The notes under the pieces were generated by a model. It saw only the letters and a list, made by a program, of their open reading frames with translations, did not search any database and was not told where the DNA came from. A DNA stretch of 64,000 bases, taken from the NCBI RefSeq assembly GCF_000026545.1, contig NC_011601.1, one strand, 5' to 3'. This DNA is from Escherichia coli O127:H6 str. E2348/69 (lineage in GTDB: Bacteria; Pseudomonadota; Gammaproteobacteria; Enterobacterales; Enterobacteriaceae). Shown here in pieces: positions 9,567-45,848 of this stretch (the first letter of the stretch is position 1; each line of letters starts with the position of its first letter). A program made the position numbers and the translations under genes.

Positions 9567-10449
9567 ATGAGTTTTGCAGCTACTGATTATCCATCCGGCG
9601 CACTAGCTGGATCGGGTACACACAATGTGACTTTGAGCGGCAGCGCAGTTCCTGATGGAATGTTACTGTTTGCAAACTTAGGGGGGACAGAAACAGTAGG
9701 GGAACTATTTACTTATTCTATTAAATTAAAAACTCCTGACATCCTGAACCTGGACTATGTTTCCCCCGCAGCCAACCTGCAGCTCAAACCGATGGTGGGC
9801 AAAGATCTGTGCGTCAATATCGAACTGGATGGCGGCGGAAAACGGTATATCAGCGGGCTGGTGACGGCGGCACGCGTGGCCGGTCATCAAGGACGCTCGG
9901 TGGTGTATGAACTGCGACTCGAACCGTGGTTAAAAACACTGACCCACACTAGTGACTACAAAGCGTTTCAGAATAAAAACGTGGTGGACATCCTGGATGA
10001 GGTACTGGATGAGTACCCCTGGCCAGTGGAAAAACGATTGGTAGAAAACTATCCGACTCGCGCCTGGCAGGTGCAGTACGGTGAAACAGATTTCGATTTT
10101 ATTCAGCGCCTGATGCAGGAGTGGGGTATCTACTGGTGGTTTGAGCACAACGAGAACAGTCATACGTTAGTGCTGGCTGATGCCATTAATGTCCACAAGG
10201 CATGCGCAGATTCGCCGCTGGTGTGTTATTACCAGAAAGGGCTGAAACTGGACAAGGAGTTTATCCATACCATCACAGCAAATGAAAGCCTGCGCAGCGG
10301 ACAGTGGGTGCTGAATGATTTCGACTTTATGAAGCCGCGTTCACTGCTGAAGAGCACTGTGGCTAATCCGCGTGAAACCGGCCTTGCTGAATATGAGTAC
10401 TACGAATGGCCGGGAGACTACTTCACAAAGAGTGAAGGTGAAATGCTGA
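9567..10449 (+). pseudogene. vgrG: vgrG (T6SS spike) N-terminal fragment
   Basis: gp27-like N-terminal region incl. ...[28 protein letters not shown]...; homology ends near residue ~300 and the frame then runs into nonsense; the gp5/OB-fold and C-terminal parts are absent. Confidence 0.7.
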
Positions 10450-11606
10450 CACGCATCCGAATGGAAGAACAGCGTAGCCCCGGTAGTCGGGTACAGGGCA
10501 GCGGCCAGGCAGCTTTACGACCCCGGCGGGCGACTGAAGCGCAGGGAGACATACAGCGGGATGCGCGGGGTGGTTCCGGACACGTTCACGGACCGGCAGT
10601 ACAGCTACAGCGGCGAGGATGAACTGCTGAAGACGCGGCACAGCCGGCGGGGGGAAACGGACTACTTCTATGACACCACGGGGCGCATCACGGCGTGTCG
10701 CTCGGAGGATGAGGGGTATCTGGCGAGCTGGGAGTACGACGCGGCGGGCAACCTGCTGGACAGGCGCGCGGGGGGAAGGGCCACGGCAGAAAACAGCGTG
10801 GTGCTGTTCAACCGGCTGATGTCTTACCGTGGTGTGCACTACCGTTATGACGAATTTGGCCGTGCGGTGGAAAAGGAGGGGCGGAGCGGAACACAGAGTT
10901 ACCGTTATGATGCGGAACACCGGATGGTGGAAGTGACGACAGCGCGGGAGACATACCGGTATGTGTACGATGCGCTGGGGAGGCGGACGGAAAACAGCAC
11001 ATCAGCCCTGACGGTAAACCGTACAACCGGACAAAATTTTTATGGGACGGAATGCGGCTGGCGCAGGAGAACAGGCCGGAGGGAATAAGCAGCCTGTATA
11101 TCTACAGCGACCCGGGAAGTTATGAACCGCTGGCGCGGTTGGATAAGGCGGGGAAAGAGGGACCGAACCGGATACTGTATTTTCACACGGATGTGAACGG
11201 TGCTCCGGAAGAGATGACGGACAGCAACGGGAAAATTGTGTGGGAGACGGGGTATCAGGTCTGGGGTAACACGATACAGGAGAAGGACCACGGCGGGGTG
11301 GAGCAGAACCTGCGATACCAGGGGCAGTACCTCGACAGGGAAACGGGGCTGCACTACAATCTGCACAGGTACTATGATCCGGATGTCGGGCGGTTCATGG
11401 TAACGGACCCGATAGGGCTGCGGGGCGGGTTAAACTTATATGCTTATGCGCCGAATCCGTTAACGTATATTGATCCTCTTGGTCTTTGTAAATTAAGGGG
11501 AAGTAATGGGCGCTTTAGAAGTGCACAGAATATTCAGGAAGAAATAGGCGGCCTGCCCAATTTTTCAGGAAAAACCCCCAGGGCAAATACGGCAAACTTT
11601 GCGTAA
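10450..11606 (+). pseudogene. rhs 3' core fragment with frameshift, ending in the DPxGL junction and a short C-terminal tip
   Basis: YD repeats in frame 1 ([10 protein letters not shown]..., YRYDEFGRAVEKEG..., YRYVYDALGRRTE) continue in frame 0 (PYNRTKFLWDGMRLAQE...LHYNLHRYYDPDVGRFMVTDPIGL...PLTYIDPLGL); frame switch at roughly 10980..11000 near an A run. Confidence 0.7.
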
Positions 11607-22598: not shown

Positions 22599-23987
22599 TT
22601 ATTTTTGGCTGAACTTCCGCCGACCATAAACCAGCCAGGTCAGTAGCACACAAACGATGTAGAAGATTAAAAACACTTTCATCGCGCCCACCGGAGAGCC
22701 GGTCATATTGAGCGACATGCCAAACGCCTGCGGAATAAAAAAGCCGCCCACTGCGCCAATGGCTGAGATAAAGCCCAGAGCGGCTGCCGTTTCGGTGACG
22801 GCTTCTCTTTGAGCTTGCTCATCACTACCGCCTTTCATCTTCACCCGATAAATTGTTATCTGGCGAAAGATGACGGCGATCATCTGGAAAGTAGAACCAC
22901 TTCCCAGACCCGCGGTCAGAAACAGCCCCATAAATACGGCGTAAAATGCGATGAAATTACCGGAGCCTGTGCCCGGTAAGGTAAGGAACAGCAGGGCGCT
23001 GAAAATCGCCATAAAAATGAAGTTGATCAACGTCACCCGCACGCCGCCGAATTTATCGGAAATAGCACCACCAACCGATCGCGCGATGGCACCGATAAAT
23101 GGGCCAAAGAACGCCAGGCGCAGAATATTCACATCCGGGAACTGGGTTTTTGCCAGCATGGCAAAACCCGCAGAAAAACCGATAAACGAACCGAAGGTGG
23201 CAAGATAAAGCAGGCTCAGCAGCCAGAGATGCAGGCGTTGTAAGACAGGGAGCTGGTCGGCAATTGAGGTGCGTGAACTGGCGATATCATTCATCCCTGA
23301 CCAGGCGGCGATCGTGGCAATCGCCAGTAATGGCACCCAAATCCATGCGGCATTCGCCAGCGACATCACCGAACCGTCGGCCTGCGGTACGCCATTGACG
23401 CCGAGAAAGGCAAATACGGGTACAAAAATGACCAGCGGTGCAACCAGCTGCATCACACTTACACCTAAGTTTCCTAATCCGCCATTAATCCCAAGAGCGC
23501 TCCCTTGTTTGGCTTTTGGAAAGAAGAAACTGATATTGCCCATGCTCGAAGCAAAGTTCGCACCTGCAAAACCGCATAGCAAAGCGATAACGATAAATAT
23601 CCCAAAAGGGGTATTCGGATTTTGCACGGCAATTCCGAGCCAGACGCAAGGAATAATCAGGATTGCAGTACTAAAAACCGTCCATCGGCGTCCACCGAAT
23701 ATAGGCACCATAAAGGAGTAGGGGACACGCAATAATGCGCCAGAAACGGAGGGTAATGCGGTTAATAAAAAGAGTTGATCGGTAGTGAAATTAAAACCGA
23801 TTTTATTGAGATTAACAGTAACTGCGCTAAATAGCATCCAGACACAGAAGGCAAGAAGTAGACAACTGACTGATATCCAGAGGTTTCTTCGTGCAATATG
23901 CTTTCCTTTATTTTCCCAGAAGGCCGGATTTTCTGGTTTCCAGTCGCGTAAAAGATAACGACTATTTTTCTCATTTTGCAGTGCCAT
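22599..23987 (-). CDS. narU: nitrate/nitrite transporter (MFS)
   Basis: ORF 22599..24029; start placed at MALQNEKNSRYLLRDWKPENPAFW... (462 aa). Confidence 0.9.
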   Translation of the reverse strand: MALQNEKNSRYLLRDWKPENPAFWENKGKHIARRNLWISVSCLLLAFCVWMLFSAVTVNLNKIGFNFTTDQLFLLTALPSVSGALLRVPYSFMVPIFGGRRWTVFSTAILIIPCVWLGIAVQNPNTPFGIFIVIALLCGFAGANFASSMGNISFFFPKAKQGSALGINGGLGNLGVSVMQLVAPLVIFVPVFAFLGVNGVPQADGSVMSLANAAWIWVPLLAIATIAAWSGMNDIASSRTSIADQLPVLQRLHLWLLSLLYLATFGSFIGFSAGFAMLAKTQFPDVNILRLAFFGPFIGAIARSVGGAISDKFGGVRVTLINFIFMAIFSALLFLTLPGTGSGNFIAFYAVFMGLFLTAGLGSGSTFQMIAVIFRQITIYRVKMKGGSDEQAQREAVTETAAALGFISAIGAVGGFFIPQAFGMSLNMTGSPVGAMKVFLIFYIVCVLLTWLVYGRRKFSQK

Positions 23988-24265: not shown

Positions 24266-25147
24266 TTAGCCACGACGTGTCGCCAGCCAGCAGAGCAGGG
24301 AACCGCCGCAGACCATTAGCGCGCCTTGCCAGAACGAGAACGACAGCGGGGCGCTGAGCAGCACGGCTGCAAGCGCTGAGGAAAGGACGGGCGTAAAATA
24401 CGAACCTACCGCCATTATGGTGACGTTGCCATGTAATATACCGACATTCCATGCAGCATAAGCAAATCCTAAGGTAAATGCCGCAGAGATGAGTTTAATC
24501 ATGACGGGCGTGCTAAATACCATTTCTGGTTGTGGCGTAAGAAAATAGTAAACCCACAGACTTGCTCCCGTTAGCAGGACAAAAACGGTAATTCCGTTAA
24601 ATCCGCGTGCGTATTTATTCGTTACTGTGCAGTAGGCTGCCCAGATAAACGCCCCAATGAACGCCAGGAAATAACTCAATGGGCTGGTGGTGATATTATT
24701 AATAATTTGATCATAATGTAACCCATTGTCACCGCCTAACACCCAGCAGACGCCGACCAGGGCTAATAATAATCCTGGTACAATCAGCCAGTTGGTTTTC
24801 TGACCATTAAACAGAATGGCAAAGAGAATTGTCAGGCTGGGCCATAGATAGTTCACCATCCCCACTTCAATCGCCTGATGACGGGTCGCCGCATACCCTA
24901 AGGAAAGCGCCAGACAGATTTCATAGCTGACGAATAACAGACTCCCGGCGAGTAAATAGCCTTTCGGGATCTGTCGAATACGCGGAAATCCAACCGTGAA
25001 GATTAACAGCAGCCCGCTTAATGAATAGATAGCAGCTGCGCCGCCGACCGGGCCGAGTCCCTCACTGACACCGCGAATCAATCCTACCATCGTGCTCCAC
25101 AGGACGATCGCTATTAGCCCTATGAGCGTTGCTTTTTGTCGTGTCAT
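24266..25147 (-). CDS. yddG: aromatic amino acid exporter (DMT family)
   Basis: ORF 24266..25183; start placed at MTRQKATLIGLIAIVLWSTMVGLIRG... (293 aa). Confidence 0.9.
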   Translation of the reverse strand: MTRQKATLIGLIAIVLWSTMVGLIRGVSEGLGPVGGAAAIYSLSGLLLIFTVGFPRIRQIPKGYLLAGSLLFVSYEICLALSLGYAATRHQAIEVGMVNYLWPSLTILFAILFNGQKTNWLIVPGLLLALVGVCWVLGGDNGLHYDQIINNITTSPLSYFLAFIGAFIWAAYCTVTNKYARGFNGITVFVLLTGASLWVYYFLTPQPEMVFSTPVMIKLISAAFTLGFAYAAWNVGILHGNVTIMAVGSYFTPVLSSALAAVLLSAPLSFSFWQGALMVCGGSLLCWLATRRG

Positions 25148-25237
25148 GCTCGCTGTTTTGTCTCTCTTGCCGTTAAAAATCAAGCTGAATTTTATAGCAT
25201 TTTTTTAACTGGTCTGTCAGGCAGTGGGGCGTTTTTC

Positions 25238-25253
25238 TACCGCTATTGAGGTA
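25238..25253 (+). promoter_or_regulatory. candidate NarL 7-2-7 heptamer pair in the fdnG promoter
   Basis: TACCGCT-AT-TGAGGTA fits TACYYMT-nn-AKRRGTA; about 105 bp upstream of the predicted fdnG start region, consistent with the reported -104.5 site (recalled). Confidence 0.45.
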
Positions 25254-25300
25254 GGTCAATTTGCGCAGGCGGATTATTTTGTGGCAAACACGTGTTCTTT

Positions 25301-25314
25301 TTGATTTCGCGCAA
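25301..25314 (+). promoter_or_regulatory. candidate FNR box in the fdnG promoter
   Basis: TTGAT-TTCG-CGCAA (TTGAT-N4-ATCAA with two mismatches) about 70 bp upstream of the fdnG ATG. Confidence 0.4.
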
Positions 25315-25378
25315 AAAGATTCAGAATTTTACTGTTAGTTTCCTCGCGCAGTAATACCCCTGAAAAAAGAGGAAAGCA

Positions 25379-28300
25379 ATGGACGTCAGTCGCAGACAAT
25401 TTTTTAAAATCTGCGCGGGCGGTATGGCGGGAACAACAGTAGCGGCATTGGGCTTTGCCCCAAAGCAAGCACTGGCTCAGGCGCGAAACTACAAATTATT
25501 ACGCGCTAAAGAGATCCGTAACACCTGCACATACTGTTCCGTAGGTTGCGGGCTATTGATGTATAGCCTGGGTGATGGCGCGAAAAACGCCAGAGAAGCG
25601 ATTTATCACATTGAAGGTGACCCGGATCATCCGGTAAGCCGTGGTGCGCTGTGCCCGAAAGGGGCCGGTTTGCTGGATTACGTCAACAGCGAAAACCGTC
25701 TGCGCTACCCGGAATATCGTGCGCCAGGTTCTGATAAATGGCAGCGCATTAGCTGGGATGAAGCATTCTCCCGTATTGCGAAGCTGATGAAAGCTGACCG
25801 TGACGCTAACTTTATTGAAAAGAACGAGCAGGGCGTAACGGTAAACCGTTGGCTTTCTACCGGTATGCTGTGTGCCTCCGGTGCCAGCAACGAAACCGGG
25901 ATGCTGACTCAAAAATTTGCCCGCTCCCTCGGGATGCTGGCGGTAGACAACCAGGCGCGCGTCTGACACGGACCAACGGTAGCAAGTCTTGCTCCAACAT
26001 TTGGTCGCGGTGCGATGACCAACCACTGGGTGGATATCAAAAACGCTAACGTCGTAATGGTGATGGGTGGTAACGCTGCGGAAGCGCATCCCGTCGGTTT
26101 CCGCTGGGCGATGGAAGCGAAAAACAACAACGATGCAACCTTGATCGTTGTCGATCCCCGTTTTACGCGTACCGCTTCTGTGGCGGATATTTACGCACCT
26201 ATTCGTTCCGGTACGGACATTACGTTCCTGTCTGGCGTTTTGCGCTACCTGATCGAAAACAACAAAATCAACGCCGAATACGTTAAGCATTACACCAACG
26301 CTAGCCTGCTGGTGCGTGATGATTTTGCTTTCGAAGATGGCCTGTTCAGCGGTTATGACGCTGAAAAACGCCAGTACGATAAATCGTCCTGGAACTATCA
26401 GTTCGATGAAAACGGCTATGCGAAACGCGATGAAACACTGACTCATCCGCGCTGTGTGTGGAACTTGCTGAAAGCGCACGTTTCCCGCTACACGCCGGAC
26501 GTAGTAGAAAACATCTGCGGTACGCCAAAAGCCGACTTCCTGAAAGTGTGTGAAGTGCTGGCCTCCACCAGCGCACCGGATCGCACAACCACCTTCCTGT
26601 ACGCGCTGGGCTGGACGCAGCACACCGTGGGTGCGCAGAACATCCGTACTATGGCGATGATCCAGTTGCTGCTCGGTAACATGGGTATGGCCGGTGGCGG
26701 CGTGAACGCATTGCGTGGTCACTCCAACATTCAGGGCCTGACTGACTTAGGCCTGCTCTCTACCAGCCTGCCAGGTTATCTGACGCTGCCGTCAGAAAAA
26801 CAGGTTGATTTGCAGTCGTATCTGGAAGCGAACACGCCGAAAGCGACGCTGGCTGATCAGGTGAACTACTGGAGCAACTATCCGAAGTTTTTCGTTAGCC
26901 TGATGAAATCTTTCTACGGCGATGCCGCGCAGAAAGAGAACAACTGGGGCTACGACTGGCTGCCGAAGTGGGACCAGACCTACGACGTCATCAAGTATTT
27001 CAACATGATGGATGAAGGTAAAGTCACCGGTTATTTCTGCCAGGGCTTTAACCCGGTTGCGTCCTTCCCGGACAAAAACAAAGTGGTGAGCTGCCTGAGC
27101 AAGCTGAAGTACATGGTGGTTATCGATCCGCTGGTGACTGAAACCTCTACCTTCTGGCAGAACCACGGCGAGTCGAACGATGTCGATCCGGCATCTATTC
27201 AGACTGAAGTATTCCGTCTGCCTTCGACCTGCTTTGCTGAAGAAGATGGTTCTATCGCTAACTCCGGTCGCTGGTTGCAGTGGCACTGGAAAGGTCAGGA
27301 CGCGCCGGGCGAAGCACGTAACGACGGCGAAATTCTGGCGGGTATCTACCATCATCTGCGCGAGCTGTACCAGGCCGAGGGTGGTAAAGGCGTAGAACCG
27401 CTGATGAAGATGAGCTGGAACTACAAGCAGCCGCACGAACCGCAGTCTGACGAAGTGGCGAAAGAGAACAACGGCTATGCGCTGGAAGATCTCTATGACG
27501 CTAATGGCGTGCTGATTGCGAAGAAAGGTCAGTTGCTGAGTAGCTTTGCGCATCTGCGTGATGACGGTACAACCGCATCGTCTTGCTGGATCTACACCGG
27601 TAGCTGGACAGAGCAGGGCAACCAGATGGCTAACCGCGATAACTCCGACCCGTCCGGTCTGGGGAATACGCTGGGATGGGCCTGGGCGTGGCCGCTCAAC
27701 CGTCGCGTACTCTACAATCGTGCTTCGGCGGATATCAACGGTAAACCGTGGGATCCGAAACGGATGCTGATCCAGTGGAACGGTAGCAAGTGGACGGGTA
27801 ACGATATTCCGGACTTCGGCAATGCCGCACCGGGTACGCCAACCGGGCCGTTTATCATGCAGCCGGAAGGGATGGGACGCCTGTTTGCCATCAACAAAAT
27901 GGCGGAAGGTCCGTTCCCGGAACACTACGAGCCAATTGAAACGCCGCTGGGCACTAACCCGTTGCATCCGAACGTGGTGTCTAACCCGGTTGTTCGTCTG
28001 TATGAACAAGACGCGCTGCGGATGGGTAAAAAAGAGCAGTTCCCGTATGTGGGTACGACCTATCGTCTGACGGAGCACTTCCACACCTGGACCAAGCACG
28101 CATTGCTCAACGCAATTGCTCAGCCGGAACAGTTTGTGGAAATCAGCGAAACGCTGGCGGCGGCGAAAGGCATTAATAATGGCGATCGTGTCACTGTCTC
28201 CAGCAAGCGTGGCTTTATCCGCGCGGTGGCTGTGGTAACGCGCCGTCTGAAACCGCTGAATGTAAACGGTCAGCAGGTTGAAACGGTGGGTATTCCAATC

Positions 28301-28426
28301 CACTGGGGCTTTGAGGGTGTCGCGCGTAAAGGTTATATCGCTAACACTCTGACGCCGAATGTCGGTGATGCAAACTCGCAAACGCCGGAATATAAAGCGT
28401 TCTTAATCAACATCGAGAAGGCGTAA
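25379..28426 (+). CDS. fdnG: formate dehydrogenase-N alpha subunit (selenocysteine-containing; Tat signal)
   Basis: ORFs 25379..25966 and 26015..28426 are in the same frame, split only by TGA at 25964..25966; twin-arginine signal MDVSRRQFFKICAGG; 1015 codons when TGA is read as Sec. Confidence 0.95.
25964..26010 (+). other. in-frame UGA selenocysteine codon plus downstream SECIS region
   Basis: TGA at the position of FdnG Sec196 (...AVDNQARV-U-HGPTVASLAPTFGRG...); the SECIS stem-loop is expected in the ~40 nt immediately 3'. Confidence 0.7.
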
Positions 28427-43052: not shown

Positions 43053-45848
43053 TTATTTTGGCAATAATACTCCGGTATAGGTATTCACCGGATGAGAAAG
43101 ATATTGTTTAACAGCAGTGTTAACATTCTCTACCGTCATTTGTTTCAACAATTGCTCCTGCTCAGTCCATGCTGCAGGATCGTCATATTGAATAAGACTA
43201 TTTACAATGGTATTCGCTAATTGTTGAACGCTACGCTGTTGGATATCGAGGCTGCGCTGAACGTTTTGCTGGTATTCGTTCAGTTCTTGCTCACTAATCC
43301 CTTTGGCCAGACGCTTAACCATCACTTCATTCGCTAACGTTAACAGTTCATCATGTCGTTCTGGTTGACAAGTAAAAGCCAGCAAATGACTGATATCTTT
43401 GGCCTGAGGATCAACCGAGAGGCGAGAAGAAACGCTGTATGCCCCAGATGCCTGTTCACGAATATTAATGCGTAGATCTTTTGCCAGTGCGACGTTAAAA
43501 GCATCGAGCGCCATACGCGTCGCCAGATTAACAGGAGTCCGGGAATTATAACGCTTCCACTGTGAAACCTGTGCCACTGGTTCATTTTGTTCTTTTACAG
43601 TAACCGATGCGTTGTCCGTCGCGCGAGTTAATGGTTTACCTGCGGCTAATGGCGAATTAGAGTGTTTGATAGATCCTAAGTAACGCGTAATTAACGCCAC
43701 GAGTTTGTCTTCTGCGACATTACCGACAATGACAAACGTGATATCCGCTGGAGATGAAAACAACTGGCGATCGGCAGCCAGTGCATCTGCGGCAGTAAAC
43801 TGTGCAATCTGATTTTCTTGCGGTAATTTCGTGCGGTCATCGGCATAGCGCGTCTCATACATCTGCTGGGCGAATTTCTCCGCTGGACGCTGGTCGAGCG
43901 TTTTCAACGCCTGAATTTGAGCATTTTGTAGCGATGCCCAAATATTGTCGTTAATCGTGCTGTGGGTGATTCGCTGGTTAATCAACTGGAAACCAGGTTC
44001 AGGGTTATTAGTCCGCACGCTAACGGAGAGCAACGTATTCATGCCACTGACTTTACTGCTCATGGTTACCGAGTTTTCCGCACTCCAGCGTTTCAGGCTG
44101 GAAGAGGAGAGTTCACCAACGCCGCTTCCGCTTACTGCTTTATTAGCCAGCGCGATAAGTGATTTTTGCTGCGCAGGGAAACTTAAATCGCCTTTATTAG
44201 ATACGGCAATAATTTGTAGCTTTTGCTCTTCACCCGCGGATTTTGCCAGAATAACCCTGGCACCATTGGAAAGTGTTAATGATGTCAGATTCTCAGCCAG
44301 CGTTTCTTTGCTGCTAATTTCCGCCTGTGGGTCAGCGTCTACTGTTAACGATAAATTTCTGCCTGGGAAGATGTAAGCCGCCAGCTTTTTGTTGGCGTAC
44401 TCTTTTTCCAGCGCCAGGATAGCCGCAGGAGACAATGCTTTTTGGGCGGCAACTTCATTGTTTACCATTTGCTCCCAAAATGCGTCCTGGTTCTTTCTTA
44501 ACTGCTGCCATTTTTCCGCCAGACTTTGCACGGTAATTTGCTGCCACAGACGTTTCGAAAGTTGATATGTCTCTTCCGGCGACAAGAACGGCGTATTATT
44601 TAATGAGCTGGATGCCAGGCGACTGGTCAGCATACGTAAATCACGCTCAGCTTGCTGATCAACCGCATTTTTCAGCCAGGTAAGGCGGGTAGATTTAACA
44701 TCATCGAGTTCTTCAGCAGAAAAACCATGCTGATCAATGGTTGCCAACTCTGCCATTAATGCATTCGCAGCATCCTGCATATTATCGTCTCGTGCATTTA
44801 CACGGAAAAATAGCGACTGATAATCGGGTGCAATTTTGACGCTGCGCGCAGTGCCGCCAGAAATAGTCTTCAACTCGCCCGACTGTATGCGTTCCTGCAG
44901 ACGTTGGTTGAACAGCTGAACCAACATGCTCCATTCAGCTTGTTCGATAAAGCTTTGCTCATCGTTCACTTGTACCATTGGCAGGCGATAATAGAGTGCG
45001 ATGCCGTTCACCCGGTTTTCTTTATCATTGATGATATTAAAGCGCAGGTGGTTTTCGGCTTTTGTCGGCCAGACGCGATTTTCAGCTGCTTTGTTAGCCG
45101 GAAGCTTACTTAAATTATCCTTTATCAGCGCCAGCGCTTCTTTACTGTCGATATCGCCGACCACAATAAAGGTCATATTATTTGGTTGATACCAGCGTTG
45201 ATAAAATTGGCGCAATTGTGCCGGTGTGACCGTGGCGACGGTATCCATCAGGCCGATAGGTTCACGGTCTAAATTACGGGTATTTGCCAGCAGGAAAGGG
45301 CGGCGCGCCTGAGAGGTGCGCCATTTCGCATCCTGATGGGCACGCCATTCCTCAGTAACTACGCCGCGTTCAGCGTCTACTTCGAGTTTTTCAAAGGTTG
45401 CGGCATTACTCCATTCACTGAAGATTGCCATCACTTGTTGCAGATTTTGTTTCTGCGTAGTCGGCAAACTCACCTGATACACTGTTTCGTCATAGCTGGT
45501 ATAGGCATTAACATCGCGACCAAAACGCAGGCCCATTGACTCAAATGTTTCGATGACTTTATTACCCGGCCATGTTTTTGTGCCGTTAAACATCATATGT
45601 TCTACAAAATGAGCCACGCCGCGCTCATTGTCTTCTTCCTGCAATGAACCGGTATGAATTTGCAGCCATAAATTTACCTGATCCTTTGGTTGAGCATGCG
45701 GATAAATCATATATCGCAAGCCATTGTCCAGTTGCCCGGTAATTAACTTTTCATCCTGCGGTAAGGCGGCGGCAATCAGTCGCCCGGGGAGCAACAGAGT
45801 TGCCACTAACGTCAGTAAGAAACAGAGGTTTCTCATAATTATCTCCAT
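43053..45848 (-). CDS. pqqL: periplasmic M16-family zinc metallopeptidase
   Basis: 931 aa; signal peptide; inverted zinc motif HFVEH...E. Confidence 0.9.
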   Translation of the reverse strand: MEIIMRNLCFLLTLVATLLLPGRLIAAALPQDEKLITGQLDNGLRYMIYPHAQPKDQVNLWLQIHTGSLQEEDNERGVAHFVEHMMFNGTKTWPGNKVIETFESMGLRFGRDVNAYTSYDETVYQVSLPTTQKQNLQQVMAIFSEWSNAATFEKLEVDAERGVVTEEWRAHQDAKWRTSQARRPFLLANTRNLDREPIGLMDTVATVTPAQLRQFYQRWYQPNNMTFIVVGDIDSKEALALIKDNLSKLPANKAAENRVWPTKAENHLRFNIINDKENRVNGIALYYRLPMVQVNDEQSFIEQAEWSMLVQLFNQRLQERIQSGELKTISGGTARSVKIAPDYQSLFFRVNARDDNMQDAANALMAELATIDQHGFSAEELDDVKSTRLTWLKNAVDQQAERDLRMLTSRLASSSLNNTPFLSPEETYQLSKRLWQQITVQSLAEKWQQLRKNQDAFWEQMVNNEVAAQKALSPAAILALEKEYANKKLAAYIFPGRNLSLTVDADPQAEISSKETLAENLTSLTLSNGARVILAKSAGEEQKLQIIAVSNKGDLSFPAQQKSLIALANKAVSGSGVGELSSSSLKRWSAENSVTMSSKVSGMNTLLSVSVRTNNPEPGFQLINQRITHSTINDNIWASLQNAQIQALKTLDQRPAEKFAQQMYETRYADDRTKLPQENQIAQFTAADALAADRQLFSSPADITFVIVGNVAEDKLVALITRYLGSIKHSNSPLAAGKPLTRATDNASVTVKEQNEPVAQVSQWKRYNSRTPVNLATRMALDAFNVALAKDLRINIREQASGAYSVSSRLSVDPQAKDISHLLAFTCQPERHDELLTLANEVMVKRLAKGISEQELNEYQQNVQRSLDIQQRSVQQLANTIVNSLIQYDDPAAWTEQEQLLKQMTVENVNTAVKQYLSHPVNTYTGVLLPK

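Follow-up and report, generated by a model that had tools for sequence, protein, structure and literature searches.

The region directly upstream of fdnG in Escherichia coli O127:H6 str. E2348/69 is almost certainly the control region of the fdnGHI operon, and can be expected to work as described for K-12. The window analyzed here, a stretch of 64,000 nt from contig NC_011601.1, contains a NarL 7-2-7 site, TACCGCTATTGAGGTA (centre 25245.5), and an FNR box, TTGATTTCGCGCAA (centre 25307.5), each of which occurs only once in the window, and both of which lie in the 231-bp intergenic region between yddG and fdnG. The original prediction had placed these elements about 62 bp apart from centre to centre; the distance was found to be 62.0 bp, with 63 bp from start to start and 47 bp between the elements. 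According to the RefSeq annotation of the E2348/69 record, the start codon of yddG is located at 25147 on the minus strand and the ATG of fdnG at 25379, so that the region lies directly upstream of fdnG and divergent from yddG. The fdnG reading frame is intact and comprises 1015 codons; it encodes a Tat signal (RRQFFK), and codon 196 is an in-frame TGA for selenocysteine. The gene order, narZ-narU-yddG / fdnG-fdnH-fdnI followed by a higB/higA-type pair and adhP, is the same in K-12, and the 401 bp around the site showed 100% identity to E2348/69 and 95-99% identity to nearly every other complete E. coli genome. The assignment to the fdnG operon, which the promoter layout had been taken to support, is borne out by the intact gene, the K-12 gene order and the identity of the core elements to those of K-12.

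Control of the fdn operon by FNR and NarL has been described in reviews, and a K-12 FNR ChIP-seq peak covers the yddG/fdnG intergenic region, with fdnG classed as FNR-activated together with nitrate and NarL. For K-12 fdnG, the FNR site was reported at -42.5 and NarL heptamers at -77, -100, -109 and -124 (PMC3349551). The NarL heptamers of b1474 are annotated as CGGATTA, TGAGGTA, TACCGCT and AGTGGTG, of which TGAGGTA/TACCGCT is marked as a 7-2-7' pair (PMC2718512, supplement 4). We found the corresponding centres in the window at 25273 (CGGATTA), 25250 (TGAGGTA), 25241 (TACCGCT), 25226 (the -124 heptamer) and 25307.5 (the FNR box). Because the five published positions (-42.5, -77, -100, -109 and -124) fit these sequences only with a +1 at 25350, the transcription start is predicted to lie there, 29 nt ahead of the fdnG ATG, and relative to this start the 7-2-7 site is centred at -104.5. 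The layout that the original prediction had given for fdnG, with a class II FNR site at -42.5 and a NarL site at about -104.5, therefore agrees with the published K-12 positions. In an alignment with MG1655, the 7-2-7 site, the -77 heptamer, the FNR box, the -10 region and the entire 5' UTR were free of differences, and the comparison with the K-12 promoter that had been proposed as a check thus gave an exact match at all core elements. Six single-base differences from MG1655 were found in the intergenic region, at 25181, 25213, 25228, 25266 and 25291-25292. The features are collected in Table 1.

Table 1. Coordinates of the features of the fdnG control region, numbered from the first base of the window
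Feature	Position	Strand	Basis
Auxiliary NarL heptamer at -124, AGTGGGG	25223..25229	-	Published position; AGTGGTG in K-12 (reverse complement CACCACT)
NarL/NarP 7-2-7 inverted heptamer pair TACCGCT-AT-TGAGGTA	25238..25253		Heptamers centred at -109 and -100, pair at -104.5
FNR-like box TTGAGGTAGGTCAA, centre -97.5	25246..25259		Second-best FNR PWM match of the window (15.7 bits)
Auxiliary NarL heptamer at -77, CGGATTA (reverse complement TAATCCG)	25270..25276	-	Published annotation; PWM 4.2 bits; identical to K-12
FNR box TTGATTTCGCGCAA, class II position -42.5	25301..25314		K-12 identity and published position; PWM 10.4 bits
Extended -10 element TGT-TAGTTT of the fdnG promoter (predicted)	25333..25341	+	Spacing to the FNR box constant between genera
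Transcription start, +1 (predicted)	25350	+	Sole coordinate fitting all five published positions to the annotated sequences
fdnG CDS (formate dehydrogenase-N alpha subunit)	25379..28426	+	RefSeq annotation and reading frame

Each heptamer of the 7-2-7 site matches six of the seven positions of the consensus TACYYMT, and the two are inverted and separated by a 2-bp spacer, which is the arrangement that defines a 7-2-7 site. When the window was scanned with a position weight matrix (PWM) built from 68 curated NarL heptamers (PMC2718512), from which the fdnG entries had been excluded, the site scored 12.3 bits and ranked third among 63,985 positions. The two 7-2-7 matches with higher scores are both in coding sequence, at 43068-43083 (end of pqqL) and 23598-23613 (narU), and are presumed to have arisen by chance. 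A single NarL heptamer, TACCCCT, with a score of 9.2 bits, is also present at 25355-25361, at about +8 in the fdnG 5' UTR; it was considered as a functional heptamer and rejected as a probable chance match, being found in E. coli-type sequences only.

The auxiliary heptamers at -77 and -124 were absent from the original prediction, as were the base change at 25228 and a second FNR-like box at -97.5. The T-to-G change at 25228 converts the -124 heptamer from AGTGGTG in K-12 to AGTGGGG, lowers its PWM score from 2.0 to -3.3 bits and, on the other strand, removes the conserved A from the TAC core. G is the minority allele among complete E. coli genomes (305, compared with 5,077 carrying T), and it is derived, because E. 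albertii and other Escherichia carry T. Judged by sequence, then, the -124 NarL heptamer is degraded in E2348/69 by a minority allele. The claim that anaerobic and nitrate control is intact accordingly holds for the two core sites, which are as in K-12, but may not extend to the -124 heptamer.

The FNR box at -42.5 is less conspicuous by score. Its right half-site, CGCAA, is imperfect, and TTGATTTCGCGCAA as a whole matches 8 of the 10 bases of the FNR consensus TTGATnnnnATCAA. With a PWM derived from the 62 ChIP-supported sites in Table S6 of Myers et al., excluding the fdnG entry, the box ranked 11th of 63,987 positions and scored under the lowest training site (11.5 bits), and its consensus match does not rise above the PWM cut-off. 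It is also missing from the genome-wide list of predicted FNR sites of Myers et al. (cut-off ln p -10.75). The PWM scan suggested as a check thus favoured the 7-2-7 site, while the FNR box fell below the published cut-off and below all training sites. Taking such a score as grounds for refutation, however, would mislead in this case, because the FNR box is weak by score and near-invariant in 57 taxa. Its conservation in these taxa shows that the -42.5 box is weak by score yet real. A scan for sigma-70 consensus elements and terminators from 25100 to 25420 detected no complete promoter, no -35 match and no terminator, and a missing -35 match is expected of an activator-dependent promoter. The distance from the centre of the FNR box to the first base of the hexamer in TGnTAGTTT is 28.5 bp, close to the canonical class II distance of about 29.5 bp; the geometry is that of a class II promoter as judged relative to the -10 element and not to a measured start.

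The arrangement of these elements is conserved well beyond E. coli. A pattern scan with one genome per species yielded 55 fdnG loci, which together with K-12 and the window made up a set of 57 sequences, with members of Escherichia, Citrobacter, Enterobacter, Salmonella, Leclercia, Kosakonia, Silvania, Phytobacter, Shimwellia, Yokenella, Trabulsiella, Pluralibacter and Pseudenterobacter. An FNR box of sequence TTGATTTnnCGCAA, or a one-base variant of it, was present in all 57, and the imperfect CGCAA half was kept in 56. The best-scoring 7-2-7 site upstream of the FNR box was 62 bp away in 51 of the 57 sequences, 61 bp away in three, and 39-40 bp away, or about two helical turns nearer, in two; the remaining sequence has a 7-2-7 site with three mismatches, still at 62 bp. 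This spacing is maintained even where 50-150 nt have been inserted into the fdnG 5' UTR, and the extended -10 element, TGnTAGTTT, likewise keeps a constant spacing to the FNR box from genus to genus. The fixed 62-bp spacing may reflect a requirement for a particular face of the helix, and the conserved weak FNR half-site may serve to keep the promoter dependent on both signals, in which case it would be held by selection. Within E. coli, the locus is carried by about 5,413 genomes, of which 5,354 have the exact 7-2-7 core and 5,406 the exact TTGATTTCGCGCAA, or about 99% or more for each site.

Several other observations came from the cross-genus set. In the fdnG leaders of Citrobacter and Salmonella (loci L003, L007, L015, L036, L039 and others), +1 and the ribosome-binding site are separated by an additional 48-57 nt, and the leaders of Enterobacter wuhouensis (L014) and Phytobacter diazotrophicus (L035) are 174 nt and 135 nt in length, respectively. 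At every element compared, the fdnG upstream region of a metagenome-assembled genome (MAG) labelled Citrobacter (L031) is of the E. coli type, and that of a MAG labelled Raoultella (L034) is that of the Citrobacter braakii locus (L015), which suggests from sequence that both are mis-binned or mislabelled metagenome assemblies.

The -97.5 box offers a different account of FNR action at this promoter, namely that FNR in vivo binds mainly or additionally to TTGAGGTAGGTCAA and there competes or cooperates with NarL/NarP. This box overlaps the right arm of the 7-2-7 site, with 8 bp in common, and its score of 15.7 bits exceeds the 10.4 bits of the -42.5 box. It is the sole fdnG site in the predicted-site table of Myers et al., where it is flagged at the yddG/fdnG ChIP-seq peak with a score of 14.43 and ln p of -12.93. 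The peak centre, 1545309, corresponds to 25263 in the window, which is 10.5 bp from the -97.5 box and 44.5 bp from the -42.5 box. We considered using the ChIP-seq summit to choose between the two boxes and rejected it; peaks in these tables often lie 40-76 bp from their sites, as at fnr, fnrS, ydfZ and ynfE, and the summit does not discriminate between the two. Furthermore, the -97.5 box is limited to 7 of the 57 sequences, all of the Escherichia type (one of them labelled as a Citrobacter MAG), whereas that at -42.5 occurs throughout the set. The NarL heptamer TGAGGTA makes up half of the -97.5 box, and the match may be a by-product of it; the functional site in the literature is that at -42.5 (PMC3349551), and our literature search found no mention of an FNR site at -97.5 of fdnG. 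We therefore regard FNR action mainly or additionally through the -97.5 box as unlikely. If such occupancy were true, a model with a single site each for FNR and NarL would fall short for Escherichia. That this Escherichia-only box is truly occupied by FNR, with FNR and NarL/NarP competing or cooperating on overlapping DNA, seems to us distinctly unlikely; it would add a lineage-specific layer of fdnG control, possibly in the form of non-activating FNR binding without nitrate. The published PWM cut-off misses the conserved -42.5 FNR site and selects a neighbouring Escherichia-specific box instead.

Two further FNR-like sites were noted in the window. The best FNR PWM match of the whole window, TTGATGCACGTCAA, is located at 656-669 between yncL and ortT (ydcX), and this sequence is the ChIP-bound FNR site at yncL/ydcX in Myers et al. 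The other, TTGATCAACGTCAC, lies at 23023-23036 inside narU and was predicted by the same authors without a ChIP peak.

The divergent orientation of yddG raises the additional question of whether the 7-2-7 site is dedicated to fdnG, since it might also serve the yddG promoter as a shared, bidirectional control element. A conserved sequence on the minus strand at 25199-25191, TGCTATAAA, resembles an extended -10 element and, by this resemblance, is probably an element of the divergent yddG promoter. It is positioned 37-39 bp from the 7-2-7 site in 47 of the 57 taxa, and if yddG transcription were to start at about 25184, the 7-2-7 site would lie near -61.5 of that start; we know of no yddG start site. 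Such fixed spacing, however, may simply follow from how compact the region is and how rarely it has gained or lost bases, and the literature search revealed no link between yddG and NarL. A shared role of the 7-2-7 site is thus very unlikely in our estimate.

Chance was assessed at the level of the whole window. Counting of consensus matches with at most two mismatches returned 56 FNR-like and 6 7-2-7-like sites, and was rejected as evidence for being too permissive, PWMs being used instead. A pair at least as good as the observed one at 62 bp was absent from all 300 windows simulated with a first-order Markov model, and about 2e-4 such pairs are expected per window from the mean single-site counts of the simulations; on these grounds the 7-2-7/FNR pair is far beyond chance. 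That the two motifs are chance matches without a regulatory role, as the abundance of consensus sites in the window and the failure to detect a full sigma-70 promoter in 25100-25420 might be taken to indicate, has virtually no probability, given the simulations, the identity to the characterised K-12 region, the conservation of both sites and their 62-bp spacing over about 13 genera and their near-invariance in more than 5,300 E. coli genomes; at the level of sequence comparison, conservation and K-12 identity already refute it.

Elsewhere in the window, an incomplete pseudogene derived from a diguanylate cyclase gene is annotated at 37608-37772, just before dosP. Because only this pseudogene fragment is annotated there, dosC appears to be truncated in E2348/69. 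At 9567-11507, the annotation has pseudogene fragments for an RHS-repeat protein and for a VgrG-like phage late control D protein, which resemble the remains of a toxin or type VI secretion-related island that has decayed.

With the region read as the fdnGHI control region, the best-supported sequence of events is the one already published; the binding and regulation by FNR and NarL are taken from the literature, not from E2348/69, and would apply to this strain by analogy. Without oxygen, an FNR dimer would occupy the imperfect -42.5 box, which overlaps the missing -35 element, and would recruit RNA polymerase to a promoter that has an extended -10 only (class II activation). When nitrate is present, NarX would phosphorylate NarL, a NarL dimer would bind to the 7-2-7 site at -104.5 with assistance from the -77 and -124 heptamers, and expression would go up. 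The promoter would need both signals because the FNR site is weak. NarP reportedly binds to the same fdnG 7-2-7 site without activating well. From the identity of the core elements, we infer the same behaviour in E2348/69 as in K-12.

The fdnG control region is already known and well studied, and nothing new in kind was found here. These data suggest that E2348/69, a pathogenic strain, retains the standard dual control of formate dehydrogenase-N by oxygen and nitrate, a control that matters for formate-nitrate respiration in the inflamed gut. As a by-product, the 62-bp spacing and the weak FNR half-site were found to be conserved over about 13 genera.

Compared with known systems, the closest is the K-12 fdnGHI control region itself, with which E2348/69 shares the 7-2-7 site, the -77 heptamer, the FNR box, the -10 region, the 5' UTR and the gene neighbourhood, and from which it differs by the six intergenic single-base changes, one of them (25228, T to G) inside the -124 heptamer. 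The regulatory patterns of fdn and narGHJI have been called essentially identical in a review. The E. coli narGHJI promoter follows the same logic, in that FNR near -41.5 acts together with phospho-NarL bound upstream, and induction needs both anaerobiosis and nitrate. At narG, however, the NarL heptamers lie about 200 bp upstream and DNA bending by IHF is required, in contrast to the fdnG 7-2-7 site at -104.5. As for the 7-2-7 site, fdnG has been named together with napF, nirB and nrfA as a target of this type (PMC2718512). In all four, inverted heptamers 2 bp apart form the high-affinity dimer arrangement. At napF, nirB and nrfA, the 7-2-7 site is nearer to the start, at about -45 to -75, and NarP acts as an activator or repressor, whereas at fdnG it is centred at -104.5 and the effective activator is NarL.
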